A DNA stretch of 64,000 bases from an uncultured archaeon (GTDB lineage Archaea; Thermoplasmatota; Penumbrarchaeia; JASLWR01): NCBI GenBank assembly GCA_964342815.1, contig CAYFHS010000006.1, positions 1 to 64,000 on the forward strand, written 5' to 3'. The notes beneath the pieces were generated by a model. The model saw nothing but the letters and a program-made list of their open reading frames with translations. It had not been told where the DNA came from and did not search any database. Made by a program: the position numbers and the translations under genes. Of this stretch, positions 1 to 14,931 are shown in pieces (the first letter of the stretch is position 1; each line of letters starts with the position of its first letter).

Positions 1-2278
1 TTCCGGGAGTCCCGTTGAGAATACCAAAGAAGGTATCCAAATTTAGCCAAGTAGCGGTGGTATCAAGGTGCCAAGTAACGTTTCCCTGACCGTCATCGGT
101 GCAATCGTAATCGACACTGTATTCCCGGGCTTCATGAGCGCTGAGAATATTTGGTATGGTGATGGATGGGGCGGTATTATTCACCTGGATGGTGAAATTT
201 ATTATCCCTCTTGCACCCACAGCCTCTGCTAACAGTTCAACCCAGTATCTACCTACATCGGAGTTGTCAGGTCTACCAAATATTTTTTTCTGTCCGGAAT
301 TCCACGCCAGCCATGACGCGTTAGTATTAAATGACCAGGAGTCCGGTACGATAGCGGATGCTTCAAAATGCAGCCTAAAATCTATAGAATCTTCATGGAC
401 ATAGACGGTACTTGGCTTTGGGTTGATATCGATTCCCTGGCCGATAGTGAGGTTAACGAATTTTGTGGGATCCTTGCGGGATGTAATCTGTACCCAGCCA
501 CCTTCTGAGGCATTGATCCATTGGTATCGGTCGTGTGTGCGGTTGGCGATTGTGATGTTGCCTCGGAACTTCCCTGTGTTTGCCCCGGTTTCATGTAATC
601 TCAATCTGAATTGTTGATTAGGATTTGAACTACTTTTGACCCAGACCTGGGCAATATTCTTCCGAGTGGCATCAGCGTCGTTACCTTGTAGTTCCAGGTA
701 TATCTTGTCACCCTGTTCTGCGGACATAATTTCATGTGAGTATTCATCGTCAGAATTGGCTTTGACAGAGGTAATAGATAAAGGTCCCGAATTGTGGTCT
801 GGGAAAATAAGGTATGTCTGGCCTGACAGATCACCACCGTTGTCATCCCCATATGCCCCTGTTAGAATGTCATCATATCCGTCTCCGTTGACGTCCCCTC
901 CACCAGCGACCGATACTCCTAAATTGACGTAAATATCCTCACCCCAGAATGATGCATCCGATATAGAGAGGTCGGTGTCCATGGCCCAACTAGACCCCTT
1001 GCCGAGTATAAGATAAGTCTGACCTGCCTGATTACCACCTTCGTTGTTATTATTTGCTCCAATCAGAATGTCGTCATATCGATCACCGTTGACATCCCCC
1101 GCTCCAGCGACCGACATTCCAGAATTGTCGCCAGACGCCTCTCCCAAGAATGACGCGTCCGAAGCAGAGAGGTCGGTGTCCATGGCCCAGCCAGATGCTT
1201 TGCCGAGTATGAGGTATGTCTGGCCGGACCAAGCAAATGCTCCAATCAGAATATCATCATAACCATCATCGTTAATGTCTCCGGCACCTGCGACCGAGTA
1301 TCCGGAATAGTCGCCTTGGTTCTCTCCCCAGAAGGAAGCATCAGAATCGGATAGGTCGGTATCCATAGCCCAGCCGGAGGGTTTTCCGAGTATGAGGTAT
1401 GTCTGGCCTGCAGATTGACCGCCATCTTCGTCACGATCGGCTCCCACCAAAATGTCGTCGTATCCGTCTCCGTTAACGTCCCCAATACCTGCAACTGAGC
1501 GTCCAGAATAGTCGCCTGCGTCCTCTCCCAGGAATGATGCATCTGCATCCGAGAGGTCGGTATCCATAGCCCAGCCGGAGGATTTTCCGAGTATAAGGTA
1601 TGTCTGACCTGCATCATTACCGCCGTCGTTGTCACTGGATGCCCCAATGAGAATGTCGTCGTATCCATCCCCATTGACATCCCCAGCACCAGCGACTGAA
1701 CTTCCGGATCGGTCCTGCGTGTCTTCCCCTAAGAAAGATGCATCTGAATTAGAGAGGTCGGTGTCCATTGCCCAGCCAGAGGCTTTGCCGAGTATGAGGT
1801 ATGTCTGACCTGCGCCCCTGCCACCGTTACTGTTACTTTCGACTCCAATGAGAATATCATCATATCCATCACTGTTGACATCCCCAGCACACGTGATCCC
1901 TGACCGTCCTGCTGAATCGTCAGTGTCCTCCCCCCAGAATGATGCGTCTGCCGCCGAGAGGTCGGTGTCCATAGCCCAGCTGGAGGATTTTCCAAATATG
2001 AGATATATCTGGCCTGCCGAATTACCGCCGTCATCATCACCGAATGCTCCAATGAGAATGTCGTCGTATCCGTCTCCGTTGACGTCCCCCACGCCAGCCA
2101 CAGATCTTCCTGAACGATCGTCCGCGTCCTCTCCCCAGAATGACGCATCAACATTTCCGATGTCTGTATCCATACCATAATCAATTGCTTTCACTGGTGT
2201 AAATACTAATAAGGGAAGAAGAAATAACACATTCATCAGAAGAATGAAGGTTATCAGAAGGACTTGCCCTTTTTTCAT
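1..2278 (-). CDS. Secreted FG-GAP (integrin alpha-like beta-propeller) repeat protein followed by cadherin/He_PIG-like Ig domains; runs off the window start
   Basis: Not in the ORF track because it has no stop in the window. Manual translation from ATG 2278: MKKGQVLLITFILLMNVLFLL (signal peptide), then repeated DASFWGE..D..G..VAG.GDVNGDGYDDILIGA...AGQ.YLI.G, later ATWLNLDTFFGILNGTP. Frame is open where spot-checked. Confidence 0.9.
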   Translation of the reverse strand, partial: MKKGQVLLITFILLMNVLFLLPLLVFTPVKAIDYGMDTDIGNVDASFWGEDADDRSGRSVAGVGDVNGDGYDDILIGAFGDDDGGNSAGQIYLIFGKSSSWAMDTDLSAADASFWGEDTDDSAGRSGITCAGDVNSDGYDDILIGVESNSNGGRGAGQTYLILGKASGWAMDTDLSNSDASFLGEDTQDRSGSSVAGAGDVNGDGYDDILIGASSDNDGGNDAGQTYLILGKSSGWAMDTDLSDADASFLGEDAGDYSGRSVAGIGDVNGDGYDDILVGADRDEDGGQSAGQTYLILGKPSGWAMDTDLSDSDASFWGENQGDYSGYSVAGAGDINDDGYDDILIGAFAWSGQTYLILGKASGWAMDTDLSASDASFLGEASGDNSGMSVAGAGDVNGDRYDDILIGANNNNEGGNQAGQTYLILGKGSSWAMDTDLSISDASFWGEDIYVNLGVSVAGGGDVNGDGYDDILTGAYGDDNGGDLSGQTYLIFPDHNSGPLSITSVKANSDDEYSHEIMSAEQGDKIYLELQGNDADATRKNIAQVWVKSSSNPNQQFRLRLHETGANTGKFRGNITIANRTHDRYQWINASEGGWVQITSRKDPTKFVNLTIGQGIDINPKPSTVYVHEDSIDFRLHFEASAIVPDSWSFNTNASWLAWNSGQKKIFGRPDNSDVGRYWVELLAEAVGARGIINFTIQVNNTAPSITIPNILSAHEAREYSVDYDCTDDGQGNVTWHLDTTATWLNLDTFFGILNGTPG
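800..2160 (-). repeat. Seven coding FG-GAP repeats, about 185-205 bp period
   Basis: ccc(c)agaatga(t/c)gc(a/g)tc-like blocks near 941, 1141, 1325, 1526, 1727, 1931 and 2133. Confidence 0.85.
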
Positions 2279-2528
2279 ATGAACACCGAACTAGAACTAA
2301 TTTAGATTTAGACCGTAATAATGTATCTATTCTTATTTGGATTTTCCCCTTTCTTTGGGGGACGCTGGAAGGACTTTATACAACTCAGATAAACCATTCT
2401 ACACTATAACCTGTCCACTCCCCGCCAGCCGTCTTTTACAAAAATTATACAACAAGATTTAATATGGTTTAGTAATATTGCCATGAAATCAGCCATGTAT
2501 TATTATATTCATAAAGGAGGAGTGAAAT

Positions 2529-2771
2529 ATGACTATCCGCATCACTATCAGGGATGCCGACACTGGCAGTAAAGTGGAGATGGACCTTGAAGAAGATAAT
2601 TCGATTGAGGAGACCATAGAAAGCGCGGCAAGTTACTGGGAAAAGGAAGCAGGCGCCTACGTGCTTAGATACGGAAAAAAGGTGCTGCGTGGACAGACCA
2701 CCATCGGAATGTCCGCCATCCGCGACGGGGACCTCCTTGAGTTAATTCCAGACCCCGAGGGCGGTTGTTGA
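2529..2771 (+). CDS. Ubiquitin-like (beta-grasp, Ub/YukD-type) small protein with C-terminal GG-Cys
   Basis: 80 aa. YVLRYGKKVLRGQTTIGMSAIRDGDLLELIPDPEGG aligns by eye with ubiquitin [42 protein letters not shown] RBS upstream. Confidence 0.75.
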   Translation: MTIRITIRDADTGSKVEMDLEEDNSIEETIESAASYWEKEAGAYVLRYGKKVLRGQTTIGMSAIRDGDLLELIPDPEGGC

Positions 2772-2969
2772 GCAAACTCAGCCCGAGGGGGTATGTGTTT
2801 TCTCACCCCTTTTGCCTTCAATGCCGCAAACGGATTTCTGACGTTTAGTAAGGTAAATCCACAAAAATATCGGTTGACCGTTTGCCAGAATTATTTGATT
2901 TAGCAAAAATTCTTTATTTAATCTGCTGTACCAGCAGGTAAATTATACCGGTTACAGGTGTATGTAATT

Positions 2970-3836
2970 ATGAAAGCGGATGCTGGAAAACTTCTCGATC
3001 TATTGGAGGAAGAGGTGGAAGGTATCGGGCTCGAGGCTCGTAAAAAACTGTTTCCCATTATCGATGGATTCATAAACGATCTTAAACGTGAGTTGGGAAA
3101 GGTGATGAAACTTAAGGCGGACAAGCGTCTACGGAATCTCGAAATATCACTGAAGCAGAAATACAACAAACGATCTTCTGTGGTACGACTTTCGGACATC
3201 CCCGAACAGCTCATAGCCGAGATACGCGAGATATGCGAGTTAGAACTGGCATCCAAGTACCGGGACAATGAAATAAAATCGTCCGGAAAGATGATTGCCC
3301 GTGATGAACCGGATTCCGAAACCGGGCCTATGGACGCTTCCTTATCCGACGAAATTACCGAGGAACTCCCCGTATTGACCCCAATTGAGCCTGTTGAACT
3401 CTATATCGGGTCTCTGGCATTCAGGACCATGATGGAACATTGTGTCGATCTTGGAAACCAGGAACTGGAAGCCCTGGGATTCCTGCTTGGAGATCATTTC
3501 ACCCATGGAGGGGAAGAATATACCGTTGTGGAGGAAGTGGTCACTTCGGAGCTGGATTCCTCTTCCATATCGGTGAAAATAAAGGATTTCACCTCCATGT
3601 TCGAGAGAATGTACGAGCTTGAGAAAGCTGGAAAGGACTATATTCTCGTCGGTTGGTATCATTCTCACCCGGGTCACACCTGTTTTCTCTCCCCCAGTGA
3701 TATCGAAACTCAGAAACGCATGTTCAGGGAATCTTACCACGTGGCAGTGGTGGTGGACCCCGTTAACACCGAGATCAAATCGTTCAAGCTGAAGCAGGGA
3801 GACACCCGGGAGATATCCTTCGGCGTATATAGATGA
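2970..3836 (+). CDS. JAB/MPN+ (JAMM) metalloprotease, Rpn11/CSN5-like, with a helical N-terminal extension
   Basis: EALGFLLG, VGWYHSHPGHTCFLSPSDIETQ (HxH-x10-D) and AVVVDP. ATG 2970 chosen because AGGTG lies upstream; the track starts at GTG 2958. Confidence 0.9.
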   Translation: MKADAGKLLDLLEEEVEGIGLEARKKLFPIIDGFINDLKRELGKVMKLKADKRLRNLEISLKQKYNKRSSVVRLSDIPEQLIAEIREICELELASKYRDNEIKSSGKMIARDEPDSETGPMDASLSDEITEELPVLTPIEPVELYIGSLAFRTMMEHCVDLGNQELEALGFLLGDHFTHGGEEYTVVEEVVTSELDSSSISVKIKDFTSMFERMYELEKAGKDYILVGWYHSHPGHTCFLSPSDIETQKRMFRESYHVAVVVDPVNTEIKSFKLKQGDTREISFGVYR

Positions 3837-3851
3837 ATTTAACTGGGAATA

Positions 3852-4139
3852 TCAACCTCGTTTAAGCTTTATACCCTTCGGCAGCAGGATTCCCAGTAAC
3901 AGCAGTACGAAAAAACAGATCAGAATAAAGTAGAAGAGGACCACTTCATCCGAAGGCCAATTAATCAGATCTTTAACAACGTTCACGAGAATGAAGAAGG
4001 CCGCTATCACCAATAAGAATCCAAAGACTTTCCAAGTATTCTTCACATTTAAGGGCCAGTTCCTCCTGGGGTCAGGGAATTTAAACCCTATGATCAGCAA
4101 GATCACAATGAATGCCATTATCAACCAATGGGCCCACAT
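3852..4139 (-). CDS. Small membrane protein (about 3 TM)
   Basis: Three hydrophobic stretches; starts 6 bp after the AAA gene stop, same strand. Confidence 0.65.
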   Translation of the reverse strand: MWAHWLIMAFIVILLIIGFKFPDPRRNWPLNVKNTWKVFGFLLVIAAFFILVNVVKDLINWPSDEVVLFYFILICFFVLLLLGILLPKGIKLKRG

Positions 4140-4145
4140 AATTTA

Positions 4146-7100
4146 TCAATCCCAATCGTCGTCTTCGTCATAGTCTTCTTCACGGTACCTGCTGGTTTCC
4201 CGCAGGTCCGCTTCCTCCCACCCGTTCTCCGCTCTATCATCATCCTCTTCATCATAGTCATCATCCCACCCCTCATCATCTTCTTCACCGCCATCATATC
4301 TGCTTACCCTATACGATCTCTCTTGCTCACCCCGCCCGCTTTCTTTGGTCACCTTCTTTCCACCACCGGTTATCTTGTGAACCTTTCTCTCGTAGTGAGA
4401 CTGTAATTCTATGTAATCCTTCTGCATCTTCTTCGAGATCGACGGCTTCAGTATCTCAATCATATCACGGAAATCGTCCATGCTGATCGTGGTGCTCCTC
4501 TTGGTTGAAAGCGCCCGCCTCATTGCCTGGGTGGCGCATTCACGGCAGAGGTTTGCAATGTCCGCTCCGGAATACCCATCGGTGAGCTCGGCAATCTCTT
4601 TCACGTTGATCTTTCCTCCCGTGGGCTTGCCTTTCATGTGTATCTTCAATATCTCCATCCTATCCCGGGGTCCCGGTGGTGGCACGTACATCACCTTGTC
4701 GAACCTACCCGGCCTTAATAGTGCGGGATCCACCAGCTCGGGTTTGTTGGTGGCCGCGATTATTATTATCCCCGAGAACTCGTCCATTCCGTCCATCTCT
4801 GATAGCATGATACTTAAAAGCCTTGGGGTGACGTCGTCTGCGCTGTAGAAGTCTCTCCTCTTTGCAATGGCGTCGATCTCGTCCAGGAACAGCAGGCAGG
4901 GTTGCTTTTCCCGGGCTATCTTGAACAGATCGTTTATCAGGTTCTCGGACTCACCGTACCACTTCGACATTACGTCGGAACATTTGACCCCTATCATCTC
5001 CACATTCAGCTCGGTTGCTATTACCCGCATAAGCAGCGTCTTCCCGCATCCCGGGGGACCGAAAAGTATCATGCCCTTGGGGGGTACCACTCCGTATTTT
5101 CTGGACATTTCCGGCCTAAGGAGCGGGCCTATCATCGAATCGGTTATCTCACTCTTGACGCCTTTCAGACCGCCAACATTTTCGAAAGACGATTTCCGGA
5201 AGCTCATCATATCCGATATCCTCGTACCCACCCCTATGGTCTTCTTATCAACATAGAACTCGGAGTAGGCACCCCTCAGAATGAAGGCAAGGGAAATGGC
5301 GAAAAGGAGAGCCGGGAAGGCAAGAACGTAAACAAATATATACTTCCATGAAAAGACCAGGTCGGTGGTAAAATCGGCAAGGAACATCCCTCCTATGGTG
5401 GCTGCGAGAAGTATGCCTCCTGCGGTGAACGAGTAGATGAATACAGTTTGGTTTTTATTCTTTGTCTCAAGCTTTTTCTTTATGAGATATACCACCAGAA
5501 CCATCAGGACCCATACCAATACCTGCAGTATCGGTACCATTGACGACATGTAATCTTTTATGAAGCTGATCATGGCACCACCGTCGATATCCCTTATACC
5601 GCCGAATGCATTGAAGTATTGAGTGGGTGAAAATAATTTATCCCCCGGGACCTTCGAGAACGTTGTAATGCTGCTCTTTTCGGTTGCGTAGGGTGATACT
5701 ATGAAAGAAAGGTTGATCACGTTGCCTGTGGCCGTCACCATGGATAGGAACAGCCCCGATACAACGGTGACGGTGATGCTGGTAAAAAGCGAGAACAGAA
5801 AGATCGAGAACACGGGAACCAGGAACGAAATCCCGAAGGTAGAGAGAAATACGGTCAGGAACGATAGATAACCGAATTTCCAGTTAAAAAGAGAGCAGAC
5901 ACAGACGATGAGGGCGAATATCATGAATAATAAGCCGAACTGCGCTGTTTGAAAGGCAGTGGAGCCGATGACTGCGAAGCTGATGAACAGCAGTGCGATA
6001 TACGGGAACCGATATCCTATAGCCCCCGTGACGAGAGCGATGATCATGACCATCCACCAGGGATAGAAGGGGCACCACAGGGCTCCGAAGAATCCCAGGA
6101 AACCGAATGCCACGGCAGTGCTGATGTCCTTTTTACGCTCTATGCTCCGAAGGCGTTTCTCGAGATCGATAACTATCTTTCGGTATCCCTTGATTTCAGT
6201 TTTTTCCTGTATTTTTCCCTTCTTCTTTGCCTGTTTCTTCTCTTCCGCAGATTCCCGCTCTCGAGCACCCCGGTCTTTCAGATATAGAAAAGCGATGGGG
6301 AACATTAGGGTTACGATTGCAAGTGTTACAATAACCCTGAGTGACGGAAAGTCCATTATGTCGAGGCCGGTTGAGATGTCTTTCACGTCATAATATATCA
6401 GGAACGTGGATTCCGTTGTATTCTCGTCGATCCTTACGGTTATCTCCTTCGGTTCATAACCGATTTCCAGGGGTTCCACCCTGATGTTGTATTCTCCATC
6501 CACCATGTCCGTGGGCGTCCAGATTAGACCGTTTACAGTTTCCATGGAAAAGAGATATCCAGCAGAGTTGTATACGGTTATCTCCGCTTCGATATAATTG
6601 GATATTATATTGTCGTATGCTCCGGCTATTATTCCGTAATGATACGTTTCTTCAGGCACTTCCACCACGTATTTATAATCTCTCGAGGTCATGGGAGTGT
6701 CGTATTCGTCGTAGGCAGTAACGGAAAAGACAACAGTGGTGTTCCCGTGGTAATAGGGAATATTTGTTTTGTAAGATGTATCGTCGATCCGGGTCATGGA
6801 TTTCGACCAGTCGATCCAATTGGGATTGCCCGGAAGCTGGAAGGAAACGTTTAAGTCGGCCCGGTTGATGATCACCACGGGATTGTTTCCCTCAATCTTC
6901 ACTTCGACGGTATCGTTGACAGAGGGAGGGACCGGGCCGTAGCTTAGGTTCATGTTCGCCTCGAAGGTGTGAAACCGCCAGGATATCTTTGGCTCCACGT
7001 TGTAGTAGTAGGTTCGGGACCTTAACTGCCGGACTCCGTCGTAAACAGTAACGTAGAATGATATGTTGGTGTTCCCCGGGTACCCGTAGAGTTCGACGAA

Positions 7101-7403
7101 GGCATCTGTCTTGCTAGTCAGATTCATTTCATATGCACCGGAGGATTTGAAATCCCCTCCTCTGATGTCCAACCAGATGTATGCCCACAAGAGCTCCACA
7201 TCGTTCAGCGAGTGAATTGTAACGTTAACCTCCTCATATTCAGATGGGATCTCCGGAGTATAAATTAGCTGGACATTGTCGTCGAAATTGTCGTTTACGA
7301 ATACGGCACCTTGGGCGTTGTCCATAGCAAGGGAAAGTGCCAGAGTGGAAATGAATCCAAGCAGTATCAGCGGTATTATCCATCGGTAATTCATGGCTAT
7401 CAC
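4146..7403 (-). CDS. Polytopic membrane-anchored AAA+ ATPase (Cdc48-like module) with an N-terminal ectodomain and acidic tail
   Basis: Signal peptide, about 330 aa beta-rich region, about 10 TM, then GPPGCGKT, LFLDEID, KWYGESE pore loop and ATNKPELVDPALLRPGRFD. No HExxH protease domain seen. Confidence 0.9.
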   Translation of the reverse strand: MIAMNYRWIIPLILLGFISTLALSLAMDNAQGAVFVNDNFDDNVQLIYTPEIPSEYEEVNVTIHSLNDVELLWAYIWLDIRGGDFKSSGAYEMNLTSKTDAFVELYGYPGNTNISFYVTVYDGVRQLRSRTYYYNVEPKISWRFHTFEANMNLSYGPVPPSVNDTVEVKIEGNNPVVIINRADLNVSFQLPGNPNWIDWSKSMTRIDDTSYKTNIPYYHGNTTVVFSVTAYDEYDTPMTSRDYKYVVEVPEETYHYGIIAGAYDNIISNYIEAEITVYNSAGYLFSMETVNGLIWTPTDMVDGEYNIRVEPLEIGYEPKEITVRIDENTTESTFLIYYDVKDISTGLDIMDFPSLRVIVTLAIVTLMFPIAFLYLKDRGARERESAEEKKQAKKKGKIQEKTEIKGYRKIVIDLEKRLRSIERKKDISTAVAFGFLGFFGALWCPFYPWWMVMIIALVTGAIGYRFPYIALLFISFAVIGSTAFQTAQFGLLFMIFALIVCVCSLFNWKFGYLSFLTVFLSTFGISFLVPVFSIFLFSLFTSITVTVVSGLFLSMVTATGNVINLSFIVSPYATEKSSITTFSKVPGDKLFSPTQYFNAFGGIRDIDGGAMISFIKDYMSSMVPILQVLVWVLMVLVVYLIKKKLETKNKNQTVFIYSFTAGGILLAATIGGMFLADFTTDLVFSWKYIFVYVLAFPALLFAISLAFILRGAYSEFYVDKKTIGVGTRISDMMSFRKSSFENVGGLKGVKSEITDSMIGPLLRPEMSRKYGVVPPKGMILFGPPGCGKTLLMRVIATELNVEMIGVKCSDVMSKWYGESENLINDLFKIAREKQPCLLFLDEIDAIAKRRDFYSADDVTPRLLSIMLSEMDGMDEFSGIIIIAATNKPELVDPALLRPGRFDKVMYVPPPGPRDRMEILKIHMKGKPTGGKINVKEIAELTDGYSGADIANLCRECATQAMRRALSTKRSTTISMDDFRDMIEILKPSISKKMQKDYIELQSHYERKVHKITGGGKKVTKESGRGEQERSYRVSRYDGGEEDDEGWDDDYDEEDDDRAENGWEEADLRETSRYREEDYDEDDDWD

Positions 7404-7407
7404 ATCT

Positions 7408-8898
7408 TCAGGTGCCCACAGCGACCTTTTGTCTCGATATCAATCGTTTTTTGAGTTTTAATCGTTCGATGATTCCCAGCCCAACGAAACCGGCAATAAA
7501 GTATTCCACGGGGAAGACAACCGGAGTGGCTGCTGCAGGCAATCCAGTAGGAGCGCTAAGAGGGATCACCGTTGGGGGGGCGGGATTTATCACCACCACA
7601 GGGGAGCCTCCGGGGGGTGGCGGGGGAGGTGGCGGAGGTCCGGGCATTGGCGGCGGGCTCGGAGGGATCATCCATTCCAGGGGGGGTTTAGATGATTTGA
7701 TAGTAAGCGTGACAGTGGAAAAGAACTCCTGGTGTTCATCGTCCCTTACATTGTACACTACTCTGGCAGAGTTAGGGGGATGGAGAGAAACATTTGAATC
7801 TATGAGGTTTGAGGAGATATTGTAGCTGATAAGTATCTTATCACCGATGCTGACCTTGCTTATGTTCCATTCCATGACAGTCAGATTGTCTTCTGTGCCG
7901 TACATGGCATCCGGGTATCTCGTAAACGAGTTTTGGTCGATGTAAAAATCATTGTACAGAACGTCCCGGATCATCGGTTCTGAATCATTGACGTCCGGGT
8001 CGTACCCGGCGGTGTAGTTGCGAAACCTCATTGCTATATTCTCGTAGATGGGCTGCAGATCGTTTGCAGTCTTGGCAATGAAATATTCCCCTCCGGTCAT
8101 ATTTGCGATCCACTTTAACAGCTCCTCGTCAACCAGGGATGAGGACCTATCTTGGTATAGTCCTATGGTATGAATGGTTATGTTCAACGCAATGGTCTCG
8201 TTAAGCACATCGGTGGTTATGTTCGTTGATAGCGGTTCAGGTTTACCATCCGTAAGAAGTATGCAAACCCAAGACTTGTTCTCTTCTCCATAATTTAAAA
8301 ACTCAGCGTTCATTAATTGTATCGCAGCATTGAAGTTTGTTCCATCCTGATTGTCCCAATCGCTGAGATCGCTCATAACCCTGTCATAATCGGAGGACAA
8401 ATGATGGCCGCCTACCAGTTCCGCATTTCCATAGAATCTCACTACGGCAGCCCTATCCGGTGCTAGCAAATGCTCCGTGTAATTCTTTGCCGCCTCGAGC
8501 CTGAGGAAATCCGTATCTGCATCATTCATGCTTGTGGAGCTGTCAACGGTGAAAACAACATCCTGGGAATTGAAATCGATTGCGGGATTTCCTGCACCGG
8601 ATATCTCCAGATTGACAGTTGCATTTTTTGGCCCCCTTTCGTCGTCTTTCTGCCAGATCTCATCGATTGAAACGGATTTATCTACCACCAGATGGGGAGG
8701 TGAGTTTACATCGATACCGGCGTCTGTTCGCTGCCGTGGTCCTTCGACTGGGTTTTCGGCTATTTCAAGATCAAGCGGTTGCGAATTGAGATATACGGAG
8801 CCAGCGGGAGCGGCTCCATGGATTTGGATAAGATAAGCTGCCAGGCAGAAAAGAACCCCAGTTATGATTGCAATGGTTGTGCCCCTCATCTTATACAT
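7408..8898 (-). CDS. vWA-domain surface protein with Pro-rich linker and C-terminal TM
   Basis: MIDAS DSSTS, GTNFNAAI, LLTDG; poly-Pro linker; hydrophobic helix followed by RLKLKKR. Confidence 0.85.
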   Translation of the reverse strand: MYKMRGTTIAIITGVLFCLAAYLIQIHGAAPAGSVYLNSQPLDLEIAENPVEGPRQRTDAGIDVNSPPHLVVDKSVSIDEIWQKDDERGPKNATVNLEISGAGNPAIDFNSQDVVFTVDSSTSMNDADTDFLRLEAAKNYTEHLLAPDRAAVVRFYGNAELVGGHHLSSDYDRVMSDLSDWDNQDGTNFNAAIQLMNAEFLNYGEENKSWVCILLTDGKPEPLSTNITTDVLNETIALNITIHTIGLYQDRSSSLVDEELLKWIANMTGGEYFIAKTANDLQPIYENIAMRFRNYTAGYDPDVNDSEPMIRDVLYNDFYIDQNSFTRYPDAMYGTEDNLTVMEWNISKVSIGDKILISYNISSNLIDSNVSLHPPNSARVVYNVRDDEHQEFFSTVTLTIKSSKPPLEWMIPPSPPPMPGPPPPPPPPPGGSPVVVINPAPPTVIPLSAPTGLPAAATPVVFPVEYFIAGFVGLGIIERLKLKKRLISRQKVAVGT

Positions 8899-8904
8899 CC
8901 GTCC

Positions 8905-11900
8905 CTAGTCGTAAAAATCATCTTCATCGTCAATCCAGCCGCTCATTTCATCAACATCGTCAGCAGCTATTCCATAGGGTTTATCGCTTTCTCCCCTCTC
9001 TTCTCTCATACGCCTGCGCTGATCCTTCCAGTCCTTCTTTCTCCTCTTCGTCTCCGCCTCATCCTCTTCCAGGTAATCCGTTTCGTCTTCTGGCTCGTCT
9101 TCAAGCCATCCCCCCATCTCCTCCATGTCCTCCTGGGCATCCTGGTAGCGTCCTCCACGGCCTTTTTTATTCCCACGTCTCCCTTTTTTCCCCTTTCTCC
9201 CATTACCACGCGTTGAAGACTTTTTCTTCTCCTCTCTCCTTTTGGATCCCTTAAAGGAGGATAATCTTCCGGAAATTCTATCGTCTTCCTCTTCCGTATC
9301 TTCTTCTATCCCATCCTCCGCTTCCAACAGGTCCGAGGTCACAACTGCAGTATCGCTTTCAGTCTCATCAGATTTCCCCTGGTCTTCCTCTTTATTTCCC
9401 CTCTCCGCCTTTTCCATTTTATCGCCTTTCACCCATTTTTTAGCCTGGCCCGTTCGTATCAGCACGAAAATGATAATTATTATCACCAGTATCAGAAGAA
9501 TGAAAAGAATTAACGGCATAGTATCGCTGAATTCCTGAAGGAATGGCGTTTCGTTCTTCACTTCTATCACGGATGATTGGATTCTCTCGTTACCGTACTC
9601 GTCCACTGCTTTTATCTGATATGTGTGCTTACCATTGTCCTCCACATCGGTTGTCCATATGTACCAGAATGAGTTGTCCGCCTCGTCATATCCCATCTCT
9701 TTCCAGCCGGTTCCTTCTATGTTTATATACATTCGCGAAGCATTGTCATTGTTCTCCACCCTGAACTCGATCTCGCTGTCTCCCTTTACTGGTACGTTGT
9801 CAAGCAGGACGCCTGGCCCCATGTTATTGAAGCTTACCTGCACCATAGCAATATTCGACTTTCCCACATAGTCCCTTGCGGTGATAATGAGGGTATGGCC
9901 ACCGTCCTGATATTTCGCGGTATCAATGGGGACTTCGTACAGGCCGGTTACCGGATTGATAAATACGCTGACAGGTGTACCATTGTCCACCGACATGGCC
10001 ACAGATTCTATCGAGACAGTGTCGTAACAATATGCCTTAACAGTATTCGTTCCGGTCAGGTGATCTCCTATCCCCGGAGTGACCACGGTTAGATCCGGTA
10101 CTGAATTGTCCACATTTACTTTTATTGTACGTGTTGTGATGTGTCCGGCCTCATCAACCGCCATTAATTCTATTTCGTGGGCTCCGTCGGTGTAGTTCCT
10201 GGTATCCCAAAGGTTCAGCCCAGTGGAGTTGATCTTCACCCAACCGGTTTTGTCCACATTGTATTGAATATTTGTGTTATAATGATCCGTTGAGCTTACG
10301 ACTATCTCGGCAAGGCCGGTAATATAAGAGTTTCCGGTTGGTTTTTTGATATCGAGTGTGGGGAAGTTCCCGTCGACTCGGAACTGTACCGGAGCAAGGG
10401 TAACCGTGTTAAGGGACCCATCATATGCTGTAACCGTAATTTCATAGCTGCCGTCCGGGATACCGTAAAGTGATTGGGTGTACTCGTAGTAATTGGTGAC
10501 GGAATTGTGTGTTGCCTGAACCCTTTTTGCGTATGAAGAACCTGCAAAAATGTAGAGCTCCACCTTCTCGACGCCCAGGCTGTCCGAGGCAAGTACCCTG
10601 AATGTCATGGATCCTTCCACGAACTGATCCGGTGTTGGACTGTGAACCGTGCATTCCGGAAATCCGTTGTCCACAGTTACCGTGATGGTCTCCACCACAG
10701 TGTGTCCAATGGCGTCCCTTGCTCTTATTGATATGGTATGCATTCCATCCCCGACCCTGGTGGTATCCCATGGAACGCCGATATGATGCCATCCGGATGA
10801 ATCCACGTTGTACTCGGTGGGATTGGGGTACGAATCGATAGTTGTGACGTTGATGTCCACGCTTCCATTGAGATAATTAAGGTTCTTGGGGCTGTTGATC
10901 TCCAGCTTGGGTGGTGTGTTGTCCACGTTGAAGAAGACTGGTCCTGCATTCGCCTCCTTTCCGGAAAGATCGTAAGCCCTGGCTGAGATCGTCTGGATCC
11001 CGTCCTCCAGGATCACAGTGGTATCAAGGCTGTACTCGTAATAACCGCTCTGGCTGTTGAATGTAGCATTTACAAGTTCGTTGTATATGTCCAGGACAAC
11101 TTGAGATATACCAACTGCGTCGCTCACCTTTATCTTGAAGGTCACGACACCCTGCACATATTGGTTATCGTACGGGGTATGTATCTCGCAAGTGGGCTTC
11201 TTGTTATCCACTGTCAACGTTATGGTTTGGAGGGTCGAATGTCCAGCGAGGTCTCTGCCCCGAATATCTATAACGTGCTTTCCGTCGCTTATCGACGTTG
11301 TGTTCCAGTGAACCGAAACATCATTCCAACCGCTGGAATCCACATTGTATTCGAGAGATCGTGGGAATGACTCTCCACTAAATGATGCGTTAAGCTGAAC
11401 CAAACCGGAAACGATATCGCCCTCCCGCGGGGAATCAATAAGGAGCTTGGGTGCATTGTTGTCGACCTGGAAATCAACCTGGGCTGATATCGTAAGATTC
11501 CCGGCTCGATCCAGCGCCATTATAGTGGCCGAATAATTCCCGTCACTGACTCCGTTCGTATCAAAAATACACTCATAGTAACCCGTACCGGCGTTGTAGC
11601 TCATGGAAATGTTCACAATCTCAGTCTGGCTGGACATATCCACGATAACGGCCCTTACACTGCTGAGTCCCACCTCATCGGAGACGATGGCGCCAAGTGT
11701 GTATATCCCTGCCAGGAATTGGTTCGCGGAAGGGAGATTAAGTCTGCATTCCGGGTCATGATTGTCTATGGTAATTATAATGCTCTCAAGGACCTCATGG
11801 CCGGCAATGTCCCTAGCTCGGATCCTCATAACATGGTCCCCGTCCGGAAACAGTCCCGTACTCCAATTGACCGAGCTGTTGACCCAGCCCGAACTATCGA

Positions 11901-14900
11901 TATTATATTCGATAATGTCCAAAAAGGTATCGGTTACTGATATGTTTAGGCTGAATGTCCCGTATACTATCTGGCCGTTCGTTGGCTCATATATCGTCAT
12001 TCTCGGAAAGTTGTTGTCTATGTTGAACTCTCTGCTGGCGGATGATCTGCTAAGACCCGCTTTGTCATGAGCGTATGCTGTGAACCAGTAGCTGCCGTCC
12101 GGGAGATTTGCGGTTCCCAGTACCAGTTCGAAATAGCCGGAATCAGAATTATATCCCATGGAAGTGTTGGAAACCAGCTCTACCCCTGTTTCGTTTATTA
12201 TTGTGCCGTTCACGCTTTCAATCCCGATATCGTCCGTGGCTGTTACCCTGAACGAGTAAAGCCCCTCTATGAATTCCCCCGTTATCGGGGTAATCACAGA
12301 AGATTGATCCGGCGCGGTGTTGTCCGCGATGAAATTTATTTCCAGGGTGGATTCGGCACCGTACGGGTCCTTTGCGTTCACGTAGAGAACATGGGCTCCG
12401 TCAAGATACTGGGATGAATCCATTACGGCTCCGAATTCGCTTCCGGAGAGCAGAGACATGTTGAACCATGCGTTTGCGTCTACCCGGTAACGGGGATTGG
12501 TGTCGGTATCCTGGATCCCATCCGGGTCGCTGATGTTCGCTATGATCTGATAATTACCCGATACAATGGCTCCAGCCACGAGGTTTTTCATTATAATATC
12601 CACGTCGTTGAATATCTCAATATTCCCGGATTGACTGCCCAGATTACCCGCTTTGTCGTATGCGTTTACAGTGTAGGTATAGACCCCCGATACGAGTCCT
12701 GTGGTGACAGTTACGTTTTCCGAGGAGTAGTCGCCGTCGTAGGCTGTTTCGTCGTTCCCCAATCCATCATCCCTCATGGGCACCTGATTGGCACCGCCTA
12801 TGTTGGATGCATCGAGATAAACATTCCCCAACCCGGTCTGACCGTCAGAACAATTGGACACCACGTATATGGAATATCCGTCTTGGGCCTTGGTGCGGCC
12901 AGCGGGATAGGTGGTATTCACCCGGCCTACTGAGGGCTGTATGTTGTCCAATCTCACTGTGTATTGTGTTCCGTTCATGTTGCCCGCACGGTCGGTCCCT
13001 TCCACCTGAAATACGATATCGCCCGTTTCCAGGCTGTTCACGGTAACCAGCTCGGAGCCGTATATGTCGTCGTTGGCCTTTCCGTCGGCGTGCTTTCCGT
13101 CGTCGAACATGTTCACCTTGAGGGCGAGACCTATGGATGAGAGATCCGCCTGGATGGAATCGATTCCGTGGGGCTGTTCTATACCCAGGGTGCTGGCGCC
13201 GAAACTCTGGATCACCTGGGAAACGTTGTTGTAGATGTCATACAAGTCTGTGGAGGACGGAGCAAAATAGTATTTACCCCCAATCGAAGAATTGGCTATG
13301 CTCCAAAGGTCGAACTCGGTGGTGTATTTGTAGGAAGCGGCAGTCGGATCAAGGTAACCGGAAGCTGTGGCATTGGTTCCCTGGGGCCACATCCCCAGAC
13401 CAATGGTGAAGATCGGGATACTGGCATTTACCAGCCCCGTACGCGTCCTTTCGGCCGATCCCCCCGGAAAATTAGCCGTGGTCTTCGCGTTGATAGGATT
13501 GGTATCTCGCTCCCTCTGTATGGAAGGATAGGCTCTCATTGGCGAGTCCCATATACAGCCTCCGCTCACGCTCCAAGTCTGTCTACCCGCACCGTTAGGT
13601 GCTCCGGGACAGTATGTTTCCGAGCCGGTTTCGAGCCGGTTTCCACCAAGTGTTCCACCGGTATCGTTACCGTCGGTCATTGCGATGATTACGGGAACCG
13701 CCTCCTCTCTCCGGTTGTTGAGGGCATACTGGATTCCCGTACCGATGGTATCCCATATGGGAGTGTTGGCCAATGGCTGGCCCGACACCATAGTCAAGTG
13801 GGCCCCGTCGTCCACGGTGATTATGTATTTCGAGATATTGCGCCCGGTGTCCGTTTCAGGGGAGCCCTGCGGATCGTTATAGGTTTCGGACATAATAAAA
13901 AAGGGGGAGTACTGTTTGACGTCTTCCAGAGCCCCACCCCCCTGTCGGTCGAAAGATACTATGGCGCACCTGTCATTATCTGCAAGCTGATCAATAAATG
14001 TGGATGAAGCGTATTCGAGGTCATCCCATTTCATTCCTCCGGAGCCGTTCGAGTCACGCATTGATCCCGAATTATCCAGAACAAGCACCACATCCAGAGG
14101 TTTTCTCTCGACGACATCCTCGATCAATATTTTGTAATCCAACGCCTTTGCCGTGACCCTAATTGTGTCTCCATTTTTGACAGCTACCTGACCCGCCGGG
14201 AGCATGGTATCGATCTCCAGTATCGTTGGTTCGTACTGGTCCACGTTGCATGCGGCAGTGACGTTTCTAAAATTCCCCTGTGAATCTGTGGAATGAACGT
14301 AGGCTGCCCGATATCCCCCGCCAACCGTTACATTTACCAGCGCCGTACCGTAAATATTATCATTGGGTGCCCCATCGTTGTGGAGTCCGTCGTCGTACAT
14401 GGTAAGATCGGATGCGTCACCGATCATAGTGGCATCGCAGAGAACCGAAGAAATAGAGGAAACCGATTCTGTTACTTTTGCGGTAATTGTGACCTTGTCG
14501 CCGGGTTTTGCCGTATCCTGGCCGGTTGGATAGAGTGTTGTTGCATTGGTGATCTGAGGTCCGGAATTGTCGAACTTGACCGGGATCGAGGTAATGTCGT
14601 CAGTGGTATCTCCCGTTGAATCGTATCTGATTATATGGCGCCCGTCACTCCATCCCGATGTGTTTATCTGGAAAGACCATGTGGGACCGCCGGACATAGT
14701 GGCGATCAACACCCCGTCTATACTCAACTCCACCTTGTCTGCATTTGTGGAATTACACCTGAAGTTCACAATGCCGGTAAGGATATCTCCCGATTCCGGG
14801 ATATAGGGAGTAACGGGATTCGCACTTGTGGTTCCGGTGAACAAACCCAAGACTCCAAACCAACTGATAACGATCATTGCGGTCATGGCAGTAGCAGACC

Positions 14901-14931
14901 ATTTACTTCTATAGTTGAACATAACAATCAC
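8905..14931 (-). CDS. Giant (2008 aa) surface protein: Ig-like repeats, vWA, three choice-of-anchor-X-like motifs, C-terminal TM and charged tail
   Basis: DVVLVLDNSGS MIDAS, AMTDG; DDGLHNDGAPNDNIYG, DDGKHADGKANDDIYG and DDGLGNDETAYDGDYS; about 10 'DNxxP' Ig boundaries; TM LILFILLILVIIIIIFVLI. Confidence 0.88.
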   Translation of the reverse strand: MIVMFNYRSKWSATAMTAMIVISWFGVLGLFTGTTSANPVTPYIPESGDILTGIVNFRCNSTNADKVELSIDGVLIATMSGGPTWSFQINTSGWSDGRHIIRYDSTGDTTDDITSIPVKFDNSGPQITNATTLYPTGQDTAKPGDKVTITAKVTESVSSISSVLCDATMIGDASDLTMYDDGLHNDGAPNDNIYGTALVNVTVGGGYRAAYVHSTDSQGNFRNVTAACNVDQYEPTILEIDTMLPAGQVAVKNGDTIRVTAKALDYKILIEDVVERKPLDVVLVLDNSGSMRDSNGSGGMKWDDLEYASSTFIDQLADNDRCAIVSFDRQGGGALEDVKQYSPFFIMSETYNDPQGSPETDTGRNISKYIITVDDGAHLTMVSGQPLANTPIWDTIGTGIQYALNNRREEAVPVIIAMTDGNDTGGTLGGNRLETGSETYCPGAPNGAGRQTWSVSGGCIWDSPMRAYPSIQRERDTNPINAKTTANFPGGSAERTRTGLVNASIPIFTIGLGMWPQGTNATASGYLDPTAASYKYTTEFDLWSIANSSIGGKYYFAPSSTDLYDIYNNVSQVIQSFGASTLGIEQPHGIDSIQADLSSIGLALKVNMFDDGKHADGKANDDIYGSELVTVNSLETGDIVFQVEGTDRAGNMNGTQYTVRLDNIQPSVGRVNTTYPAGRTKAQDGYSIYVVSNCSDGQTGLGNVYLDASNIGGANQVPMRDDGLGNDETAYDGDYSSENVTVTTGLVSGVYTYTVNAYDKAGNLGSQSGNIEIFNDVDIIMKNLVAGAIVSGNYQIIANISDPDGIQDTDTNPRYRVDANAWFNMSLLSGSEFGAVMDSSQYLDGAHVLYVNAKDPYGAESTLEINFIADNTAPDQSSVITPITGEFIEGLYSFRVTATDDIGIESVNGTIINETGVELVSNTSMGYNSDSGYFELVLGTANLPDGSYWFTAYAHDKAGLSRSSASREFNIDNNFPRMTIYEPTNGQIVYGTFSLNISVTDTFLDIIEYNIDSSGWVNSSVNWSTGLFPDGDHVMRIRARDIAGHEVLESIIITIDNHDPECRLNLPSANQFLAGIYTLGAIVSDEVGLSSVRAVIVDMSSQTEIVNISMSYNAGTGYYECIFDTNGVSDGNYSATIMALDRAGNLTISAQVDFQVDNNAPKLLIDSPREGDIVSGLVQLNASFSGESFPRSLEYNVDSSGWNDVSVHWNTTSISDGKHVIDIRGRDLAGHSTLQTITLTVDNKKPTCEIHTPYDNQYVQGVVTFKIKVSDAVGISQVVLDIYNELVNATFNSQSGYYEYSLDTTVILEDGIQTISARAYDLSGKEANAGPVFFNVDNTPPKLEINSPKNLNYLNGSVDINVTTIDSYPNPTEYNVDSSGWHHIGVPWDTTRVGDGMHTISIRARDAIGHTVVETITVTVDNGFPECTVHSPTPDQFVEGSMTFRVLASDSLGVEKVELYIFAGSSYAKRVQATHNSVTNYYEYTQSLYGIPDGSYEITVTAYDGSLNTVTLAPVQFRVDGNFPTLDIKKPTGNSYITGLAEIVVSSTDHYNTNIQYNVDKTGWVKINSTGLNLWDTRNYTDGAHEIELMAVDEAGHITTRTIKVNVDNSVPDLTVVTPGIGDHLTGTNTVKAYCYDTVSIESVAMSVDNGTPVSVFINPVTGLYEVPIDTAKYQDGGHTLIITARDYVGKSNIAMVQVSFNNMGPGVLLDNVPVKGDSEIEFRVENNDNASRMYINIEGTGWKEMGYDEADNSFWYIWTTDVEDNGKHTYQIKAVDEYGNERIQSSVIEVKNETPFLQEFSDTMPLILFILLILVIIIIIFVLIRTGQAKKWVKGDKMEKAERGNKEEDQGKSDETESDTAVVTSDLLEAEDGIEEDTEEEDDRISGRLSSFKGSKRREEKKKSSTRGNGRKGKKGRRGNKKGRGGRYQDAQEDMEEMGGWLEDEPEDETDYLEEDEAETKRRKKDWKDQRRRMREERGESDKPYGIAADDVDEMSGWIDDEDDFYD

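Follow-up and report, generated by a model that had tools for sequence, protein, structure and literature searches.

A ubiquitin-like protein and an Rpn11-like protease are encoded side by side

We analysed a 64,000-nucleotide stretch of DNA from an uncultured archaeon of the phylum Thermoplasmatota (hereafter the window: positions 1-64000 of contig 6), which belongs to a 4.35-Mb genome of 116 contigs that is 89% complete (G000). Our subject is a pair of neighbouring forward-strand genes, the first encoding an 80-amino-acid (aa) ubiquitin-like protein (Ubl) and the second a JAMM metalloprotease. An earlier note on this DNA had described them as a dedicated Ubl/isopeptidase pair, in which a single Cys after the Gly-Gly (GG) of the Ubl would be trimmed or serve as a reactive thiol. 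DNA near-identical to the window is found in marine and seawater metagenomes. For comparison we used one genome of the same genus (G077), further genomes of the same family (G170 and G083), and a sample of 401 Thermoplasmatota genomes for family distribution.

The Ubl open reading frame (ORF) is present at 2529-2771 as previously noted and reads ELIPDPEGG-C-stop at its end, with a GGAGG ribosome-binding site 8 nucleotides (nt) ahead of the ATG. Because 103 homologues were recovered, and the codons differ from those of G077 by 24 synonymous changes and only one non-synonymous change, this is a real gene and a chance ORF is excluded. Alignment of the window with G077 further revealed near-identity upstream of the Ubl ATG and a sharp fall directly after the stop codon. 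Searching 1.84 billion representative proteins with the Ubl gave just 138 matches at E up to 0.001, hence the family is small and tight. Among the 103 homologues ELIPDPEGG is invariant, with G78 and G79 unchanged throughout and likewise I73, P74, D75 and P76.

Structure prediction, which the earlier note had suggested as a check, yielded a beta-grasp fold: the AlphaFold2 model, for which 30 homologues were supplied, has a predicted local distance difference test score (pLDDT) of 89.3 and the order beta-beta-alpha-beta-beta-beta. When this model was compared with the PDB using Foldseek, the top 50 matches were all SUMO, Ub, NEDD8, ISG15, Hub1 or Caldiarchaeum Ub, with template-modelling (TM) scores of 0.79-0.87, and none of those 50 was ThiS, MoaD, SAMP or CysO. 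A family profile search also returned ubiquitin chains as the best solved relatives, and structural alignments place the Ubl at about 20% identity to ubiquitin. The protein is thus of the ubiquitin type and not of the ThiS/MoaD type, as had been proposed.

The same genome encodes another protein with a Ubl domain, on contig 2 (L006:1477-2979, forward strand). This 500-aa product carries the domain at its N-terminus, without Gly-Gly and at 32% identity to the window Ubl (E 3.6e-5); further on it has zinc-ribbon-like motifs of paired Cys and long runs of acidic residues. Conservation extends to the genus (G077) and the family (G170), and the protein may be a ubiquitin-domain adaptor.

Downstream of the Ubl, the protease ORF contains both strings highlighted earlier, VGWYHSHPGHTCFLSPSDIETQ and AVVVDP, and its JAMM motif is complete (E167, H231-S-H233, S241 and D244) and invariant in 36 homologues. 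Its end at 3836 stands as first reported, whilst the true start probably lies 12 nt downstream of the proposed GTG at 2958: the nearest homologues open with M-N/K-x-D and align with the ATG at 2970, which is the best start. The Pfam JAB profile matches at 3.9e-13 (49.7 bits against a cut-off of 22.5). Using phmmer against the PDB, the best matches were yeast Rpn11 (4.8e-17), human PSMD14 (1e-14) and the Rpn11-like protein of Caldiarchaeum (CsRpn11; 2e-14), with CSN5 (6e-11) and AMSH (1e-4) weaker. Foldseek placed Rpn11, CSN5 and CsRpn11 on top in the same order as by sequence, in line with the proximity to Rpn11/CSN5 that had been noted. In the full model (pLDDT 79), the MPN domain, at about residues 144-288, superposes on all three.

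Ahead of this domain the model contains helices at residues 2-15, 21-71 and 79-106 (pLDDT 63-89). The helical N-terminal domain described earlier is therefore present in the model, although its helical part spans about 107 aa and not about 130. The linker that follows differs in length among relatives, and the extension can be aligned only in the closest of them (P0105-P0111, P0115-P0117); JAMMs of other families have short, unrelated N-termini or C-terminal membrane anchors. Pfam returned nothing for the extension, and the ESM Atlas gave no feature match, only generic helical-bundle look-alikes at TM 0.47-0.65. The extension may serve oligomerisation or docking.

Many JAMMs from gene cassettes of other families (e.g. 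L020-L033; P0133-P0219) start with M-x-R-P-[KR]-I-[VL]-x-E-T-[KR]-R ... E-P-P, a basic N-terminal motif that is absent from the window JAMM, and many end in a short basic R-R-L-K tail. A PF01398 search of the genome found only two MPN+ paralogues, no search aimed at lid subunits having been made. Separately, contig 8 encodes a 610-aa protein (L060:1399-3231, reverse strand) whose sole Pfam match is a C-terminal Prok-JAB domain at residues 496-576 (38.7 bits), which by sequence is a third JAMM and not of the Rpn11 type.

The pair is conserved and related families keep it within an E1/E2 cassette

The Ubl family was found in 99 of the 401 sampled Thermoplasmatota genomes (about a quarter), including many Methanomassiliicoccales. 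Genomes that possess it mostly have one match each, and it is near-universal in whole families (14/14 and 41/48 genomes). We surveyed the neighbourhoods of these PEGG(x) homologues, as had been recommended, and found the GG invariant and the JAMM gene co-located in related genomes: it lies downstream of the Ubl, on the same strand, at 23 of 29 loci from related genomes, and downstream at 72 of 80 species-level loci, which agrees with a dedicated pair. Most other Thermoplasmatota families hold the Ubl gene in a compact cassette. The commonest arrangement across species loci, E1 > Ubl > E2 > JAMM (46/80), adds genes for a ubiquitin-activating (E1) and a conjugating (E2) enzyme; Ubl > E2 > JAMM (19/80) and the plain Ubl > JAMM of the window (5/80) are less frequent. 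In several families the cassette is framed by conserved flanking genes. No conserved fifth gene was detected among the clustered neighbours of relatives' cassettes, where a search aimed at RING fingers was not made.

We also predicted the complex of the MPN domain with the Ubl precursor, alongside three controls. The pair reached an ipSAE of 0.90, compared with 0.00 for the best control, with at least 97% contact agreement between runs and partner pLDDT of at least 90; in a benchmark, 58 of 80 solved complexes and 2 of 110 mismatched pairs attained that ipSAE mark. In the predicted complex, Ubl residues 73-80 touch E167, H231, H233, S241 and D244. Since similar complexes have been solved (CsUb:CsRpn11 and Ub:Rpn11; 6FNN and 5U4P), of which the model may hold a memory, this prediction points to likeness and is not independent proof.

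The residue after Gly-Gly drifts freely

A census of 78 loci in a one-genome-per-species collection showed that the tail is absent from 37, consists of one extra residue in 26 and comprises 2-15 residues in 15. Its first residue varies (F, C, I, R, Q, Y, A, H and others), and Cys takes this place in only five of the 41 tail-bearing loci, although it had looked common among representatives of 90%-identity clusters (23/71 tails). The codon after GG is also the single non-synonymous difference from G077, where TAT (Tyr) replaces TGT (Cys) and the rest of the protein is identical. Given this variation in length and identity, down to the Tyr of G077, the Cys is a drifting, disposable residue. A special role for it was considered and ruled out by its presence in 5/41 tails and by the single-base change to Tyr within the genus; the reactive thiol of the earlier note is lost with it, the Cys being unconserved even in the genus and 37/78 loci having no tail. 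Trimming of the Cys after GG, its other suggestion, fits by analogy the precedent of CsRpn11 (PMC6043591, PMC5654768).

The protease gene is kept beside the Ubl equally often with and without a tail: at 33 of 35 loci where the Ubl ends in GG and at 32 of 35 where it is tailed. This argues that deconjugation is the conserved selective reason for the gene, and removal of the tag from its targets is probably the main role of the JAMM, as far as these retention counts indicate.

Two unusual Ubl genes were encountered among the relatives. On a single 2.9-kb metagenome contig (L143:259-1008, P0238), a Ubl ending in PDPTGG is fused in frame to an E2, with a JAMM two genes downstream; if the fusion is real, the JAMM would have to cut after GG, but as the case stands on one contig it may be a sequencing error. 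The other, P0240, joins two Ubl units in tandem and has a hydrophobic C-terminus.

Cassette-type E1 and E2 enzymes lie on other contigs

Profile searches found no ThiF, UQ_con or zf-RING_2 match within the window (C6:1-64000) at the thresholds used, and a six-frame RING-pattern scan of the window found nothing. The observation that no E1, E2 or E3 is visible in the 64 kb is thus upheld at those thresholds. The genome-wide search that had been suggested alongside it located candidates on contigs 22, 15 and 48, which favours conjugation in trans.

The E1 candidate, on contig 22, is a 274-aa ThiF-family protein (171 bits) that is 47-53% identical to cassette E1s and has a conserved Cys, Cys203. 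Conservation marks are blank over the N-terminal half of the E1; we attributed this to crude ORF calling and set these marks aside. Contig 17 encodes a further ThiF protein, which adjoins a thiazole-synthase-like gene, is only 26-29% identical to cassette E1s and presumably belongs to the MoeB/ThiF sulfur-transfer type. The genome has two E2s of the UBC type, one on contig 15 and one on contig 48. They share 47-58% identity with cassette E2s, exceed the UQ_con cut-off and retain HPN and the catalytic Cys; UQ_con had no match in 14 control prokaryotes.

On contig 48 (L004:264-1980, reverse strand), the E2-like gene (191 aa) is directly followed by a second Rpn11-like JAMM (324 aa) with a long acidic tail and two C-terminal hydrophobic helices, and this module adjoins a primase-like gene. 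Within an MPN-domain tree, the Ubl-linked JAMMs of the family form a clade (support 98/97); a larger supported clade joins them to the cassette and contig 48 JAMMs, the two paralogues of the window's genome falling on separate branches. All three family genomes searched have the E2 > JAMM module, with two tandem MPN matches in G170 and G083, and keep it and Ubl > JAMM on different contigs, plus a lone E2. No E2 was found on the Ubl contig in any of the three, even where that contig measures 251 kb. As the same split recurs in 3/3 genomes and on so long a contig, dispersal of the cassette in this family is real and old, and not an assembly artefact.

There are 14 zf-RING_2-like matches in the genome, mostly in open frames of 1,000-2,700 aa and with one above the cut-off; this profile had no match in the 14 control prokaryotes. 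To judge from sequence, these fingers are candidate E3s on giant membrane proteins. A search with RINGv (PF12906) gave no match anywhere, controls included, and is evidence neither way. The RING-like match nearest to the window is at C6:67793-67906, 3.8 kb beyond its end.

Layout of the locus and neighbouring genes

Coordinates of the pair are collected in Table 1. The spacer between the genes is poorly conserved in comparison with G077, short patches excepted, and the two may be transcribed separately. A terminator scan of the spacer found none, the scan relying on a bacterial consensus that is uninformative on archaeal signals. Two marine metatranscriptome contigs of one study match exactly at 3128-3323 and 3697-3897, leaving the Ubl gene uncovered.

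Table 1. Sequence features of the Ubl and JAMM genes in the window.
Feature	Positions	Strand	Basis or remark
Ubl 5' region	2440..2528	+	A/T-rich promoter-like stretch; conserved with G077
GGAGG ribosome-binding site	2516-2520	+	sequence reading
Ubl precursor, 80 aa	2529..2771	+	ORF, model, homologues
Mature Ubl part ending PDPEGG	2529-2765	+	ORF reading
Extra Cys codon after GG	2766-2768	+	TGT
Ubl stop codon	2769-2771	+	ORF reading
Intergenic spacer, 198 nt	2772..2969	+	T-runs after Ubl stop
TATA-like A/T-rich patch in spacer	about 2913-2925	+	some 45-55 nt before JAMM ATG
JAMM N-terminal helical extension, residues 1-107	2970..3290	+	model; lineage-specific
JAMM acidic disordered linker, residues 110-131	3297..3362	+	pLDDT below 50
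MPN+/JAMM catalytic domain, residues 133-288, plus stop	3366..3836	+	Pfam JAB, homologues, Foldseek
Catalytic Glu167 codon	3468-3470	+	JAMM motif
H-x-H-x7-S-x2-D	3660-3701	+	JAMM motif

Four tightly packed genes occupy 3852-14931 on the reverse strand and end 15 nt from the JAMM stop. They encode a protein with three transmembrane segments, a polytopic AAA ATPase of 1,085 aa whose tail is acidic, a vWA protein carrying a Pro-rich anchor, and a 2,008-aa surface protein. A functional link between these genes and the pair was considered and is not supported, as the order is shared only with G077 and does not extend to the other two genera of the family. On the other side, 2-2278 (reverse strand) holds the 5' part of a gene for a large secreted protein of repeats of about 65 aa, whose motifs of the type D-V-N-G-D-G-Y-D-D-I-L-I-G are FG-GAP/integrin-like by eye.

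Discussion

Taken together, this analysis suggests, with a probability that we put at roughly 0.8, that the Ubl and its JAMM form one module of a scattered, E1/E2-dependent tagging system of the ubiquitin type. The Ubl would be made as a precursor of the modifier with one residue in excess, and the Rpn11-like zinc protease would bind its beta-grasp body and extended LIPDPEGG tail, cutting after Gly-Gly and freeing the terminal Cys. By cleaving this bond again at a later stage, it would release modified proteins from the tag. Activation of the tag would fall to the ThiF-type E1 of contig 22 and its transfer to the UBC-type E2s of contigs 15 and 48, whilst RING-like fingers of large membrane proteins may assist. 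We build on what was observed, namely the folds and catalytic motifs, a gene linkage that is conserved, and trans-acting enzymes that are present in the genome; cleavage, conjugation and targets we infer, with cleavage and E1/E2 transfer carried over from the Caldiarchaeum precedent (PMC5654768, PMC6043591).

Several points weigh against this interpretation. No E1 or E2 is linked to the pair in the window, so that the functional connection rests on orthology with the cassettes of other families, and the genome is 89% complete. The RING-like matches are mostly below the cut-off (1/14 above) and none is linked to a cassette. The Ubl itself falls short of both Pfam profiles that it resembles, scoring 18.0 bits with ubiquitin PF00240 (cut-off 25.4; 16.9 bits in the whole-genome search) and 20.2 bits with YukD (cut-off 27); its membership therefore rests on fold and context, not on sequence score. 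The metatranscriptome matches say little on expression, since RNA libraries may carry DNA, and the evidence on the tag family is drawn from sequences and models.

Another reading, which we consider unlikely, is that the two JAMM paralogues split the work, the soluble one maturing the precursor and the membrane-anchored copy on contig 48 deconjugating (membrane) substrates. The genome does hold two Rpn11-like JAMMs, on separate branches of one supported clade; both modules, Ubl > JAMM and E2 > JAMM, are retained in 3/3 family genomes searched; and the contig 48 copy has the acidic tail and two hydrophobic helices. However, the post-GG tail is lost and regained freely, with a different one in G077, and a gene for trimming only is hard to square with the retention of the JAMM beside Ubls that are encoded in their mature form.

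Beyond the tagging module itself, we can entertain, with considerable doubt, that in this large-genome marine family the ancestral cassette was rebuilt as a dispersed network of the eukaryotic style, with one tag, two E2s, soluble and membrane-anchored proteases and a dozen-odd RING-like fingers carried at the tails of giant membrane proteins. It is equally doubtful that the docking domain of the soluble JAMM is coiled-coil-like, as this would have it. If true, such a network would imply tagging of membrane or surface proteins, a primitive receptor-turnover pathway or one resembling endoplasmic-reticulum-associated degradation, in an archaeon that is remote from Asgard; the membrane AAA ATPase encoded next to the pair might then take part.

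It is very unlikely that the Ubl goes unconjugated, whether as a regulatory subunit of the JAMM or as the non-covalent adaptor that the earlier note had left as an option. Such a role would suit a window without E1 and E2, in a genome where another protein has a built-in Ubl domain that lacks GG. It conflicts with the GG and seven preceding residues, invariant family-wide, with the ancestral context E1 > Ubl > E2 > JAMM, and with the orthologous E1 and E2s that the genome has kept, catalytic residues included.

Slighter still is the chance that the cassette defends against viruses as a system of the type of bacterial Bil or CBASS Cap2-Cap3, with which it shares its gene content (Ubl, E1, E2 and JAB protease). 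PADLOC gave weak matches for the JAMM, to BilC and the CBASS JAB at about 23 bits, and for the E1, to a Cap2-type E1-E2 at 46 bits; both score far better against Rpn11 (66 bits) and ThiF (171 bits), and the Ubl and both E2s match no PADLOC model. The Ubl is near-universal in whole families (14/14 and 41/48 genomes), mostly as a single match per genome, and the cassette has conserved flanking genes in several families, a vertical, housekeeping-like pattern unlike that of defence islands.

Sulfur-carrier chemistry, with the Ubl as a thiocarboxylate carrier of the CysO/ThiS/MoaD type and the JAMM as a Mec+-like hydrolase, can practically be discounted: the Ubl does end in GG-Cys, and JAMM enzymes of the Mec+/CysO system release Cys, but the analogy fails on fold (no ThiS, MoaD or CysO in the Foldseek top 50), on gene context (a UBC-type E2, absent from sulfur-carrier systems, and a separate MoeB/ThiF-type E1 in the genome for such chemistry) and on the Cys itself, which is unconserved (Tyr in G077; 5/41 tails; no tail in 37/78).

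The tagging module that we favour can be compared with several known systems. Eukaryotic ubiquitin genes encode one or a few variable residues after GG, which need trimming. The same variability is seen in the window family, and among solved structures the JAMM domain matches yeast Rpn11 best. Ubiquitin precursors of eukaryotes are processed by deubiquitinases (DUBs), whereas eukaryotic Rpn11, active only as the partner of Rpn8 inside the proteasome lid, has no part in precursor maturation (PMC6043591); the window JAMM, in contrast, is a stand-alone protein, and the Ubl shares about 20% identity with ubiquitin. The SAMP/UbaA/JAMM1 system of Haloferax and CysO/Mec+ also combine a GG-ending beta-grasp protein with a ThiF-type E1 and a JAMM protease, but they lack an E2 and use Ubls of the ThiS/MoaD type, unlike the Ub/SUMO/NEDD8-like tag and UBC-type E2s of this family. 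From Bil and CBASS Cap2-Cap3 the family differs in its Ubl and E2s, which lack PADLOC matches, and in its family-wide distribution.

The closest characterised system is CsUb/CsRpn11 of Caldiarchaeum subterraneum, encoded in an operon with E1, E2 and RING (PMC3082918, PMC5654768, PMC6043591; PDB 6FJ7, 6FJV, 6FNN), where CsRpn11 has two activities, deconjugation and cleavage of the CsUb precursor precisely behind GG (PMC6043591, PMC5654768). In both systems a ubiquitin-type precursor with post-GG residues is encoded beside an Rpn11-like JAMM that stands alone, and the enzymes include a UBC-type E2 and a short E1 of the ThiF type. Against CsUb the Ubl model reaches TM 0.84-0.86, against CsRpn11 the JAMM scores 2e-14 at about 32% identity, and the predicted mode of Ubl-JAMM binding resembles that of the solved CsUb:CsRpn11. 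Nevertheless, the tail of CsUb has nine residues, compared with one in the window and often none in its family, which has the PDPEGG tail motif, and the window JAMM bears the helical N-terminal extension of about 107 aa. The Caldiarchaeum and Asgard operons cluster Ub, E1, E2, RING E3 and Rpn11, whilst the window holds only Ubl and JAMM, the rest being on other contigs. No RING gene was seen in the Thermoplasmatota cassette, where no dedicated RING search was made, and the phylum is Thermoplasmatota, not Aigarchaeota or Asgard.

Also close is the E1 > Ubl > E2 > JAMM cassette of Methanomassiliicoccales and of other Thermoplasmata metagenome-assembled genomes, whose genes are orthologous to the window Ubl and JAMM and to the E1 and E2s of its genome (identities of 48-100% for the Ubl, 35-81% for the MPN domain, 47-53% for the E1 and 47-58% for the E2). 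The window family differs in having split this cassette into Ubl > JAMM, a membrane-anchored E2 > JAMM, a lone E2 and a lone E1. Fuchs et al. (2018) described a group, 'JAMM-3', whose operons include homologues of Ub, E1 and E2 and to which the Thermoplasmatota cassette family possibly corresponds; their supplement gives no taxon names for it. The report of Grau-Bove (2015) is limited to DUB and RING genes of a single marine group II genome. A full-text literature search found no description of a Thermoplasmatota E1/Ubl/E2/JAMM system. To our knowledge, work on ubiquitin-type tagging in archaea that involves a true E2 is confined to in vitro reconstitution of proteins from uncultured Caldiarchaeum, and its discussion has centred on Aigarchaeota and Asgard.

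Methanomassiliicoccales, among which the family is found in many genomes, are an order with cultured gut methanogens, so that the system could be studied in living cells, from its tagged targets to a possible link with proteasomal degradation. Its occurrence bears on how far the ubiquitin toolkit pre-dates eukaryotes. To this the window adds that the cassette can be dismantled, with E1 and E2 acting in trans, and that the residue after Gly-Gly, here a Cys, is free to drift.

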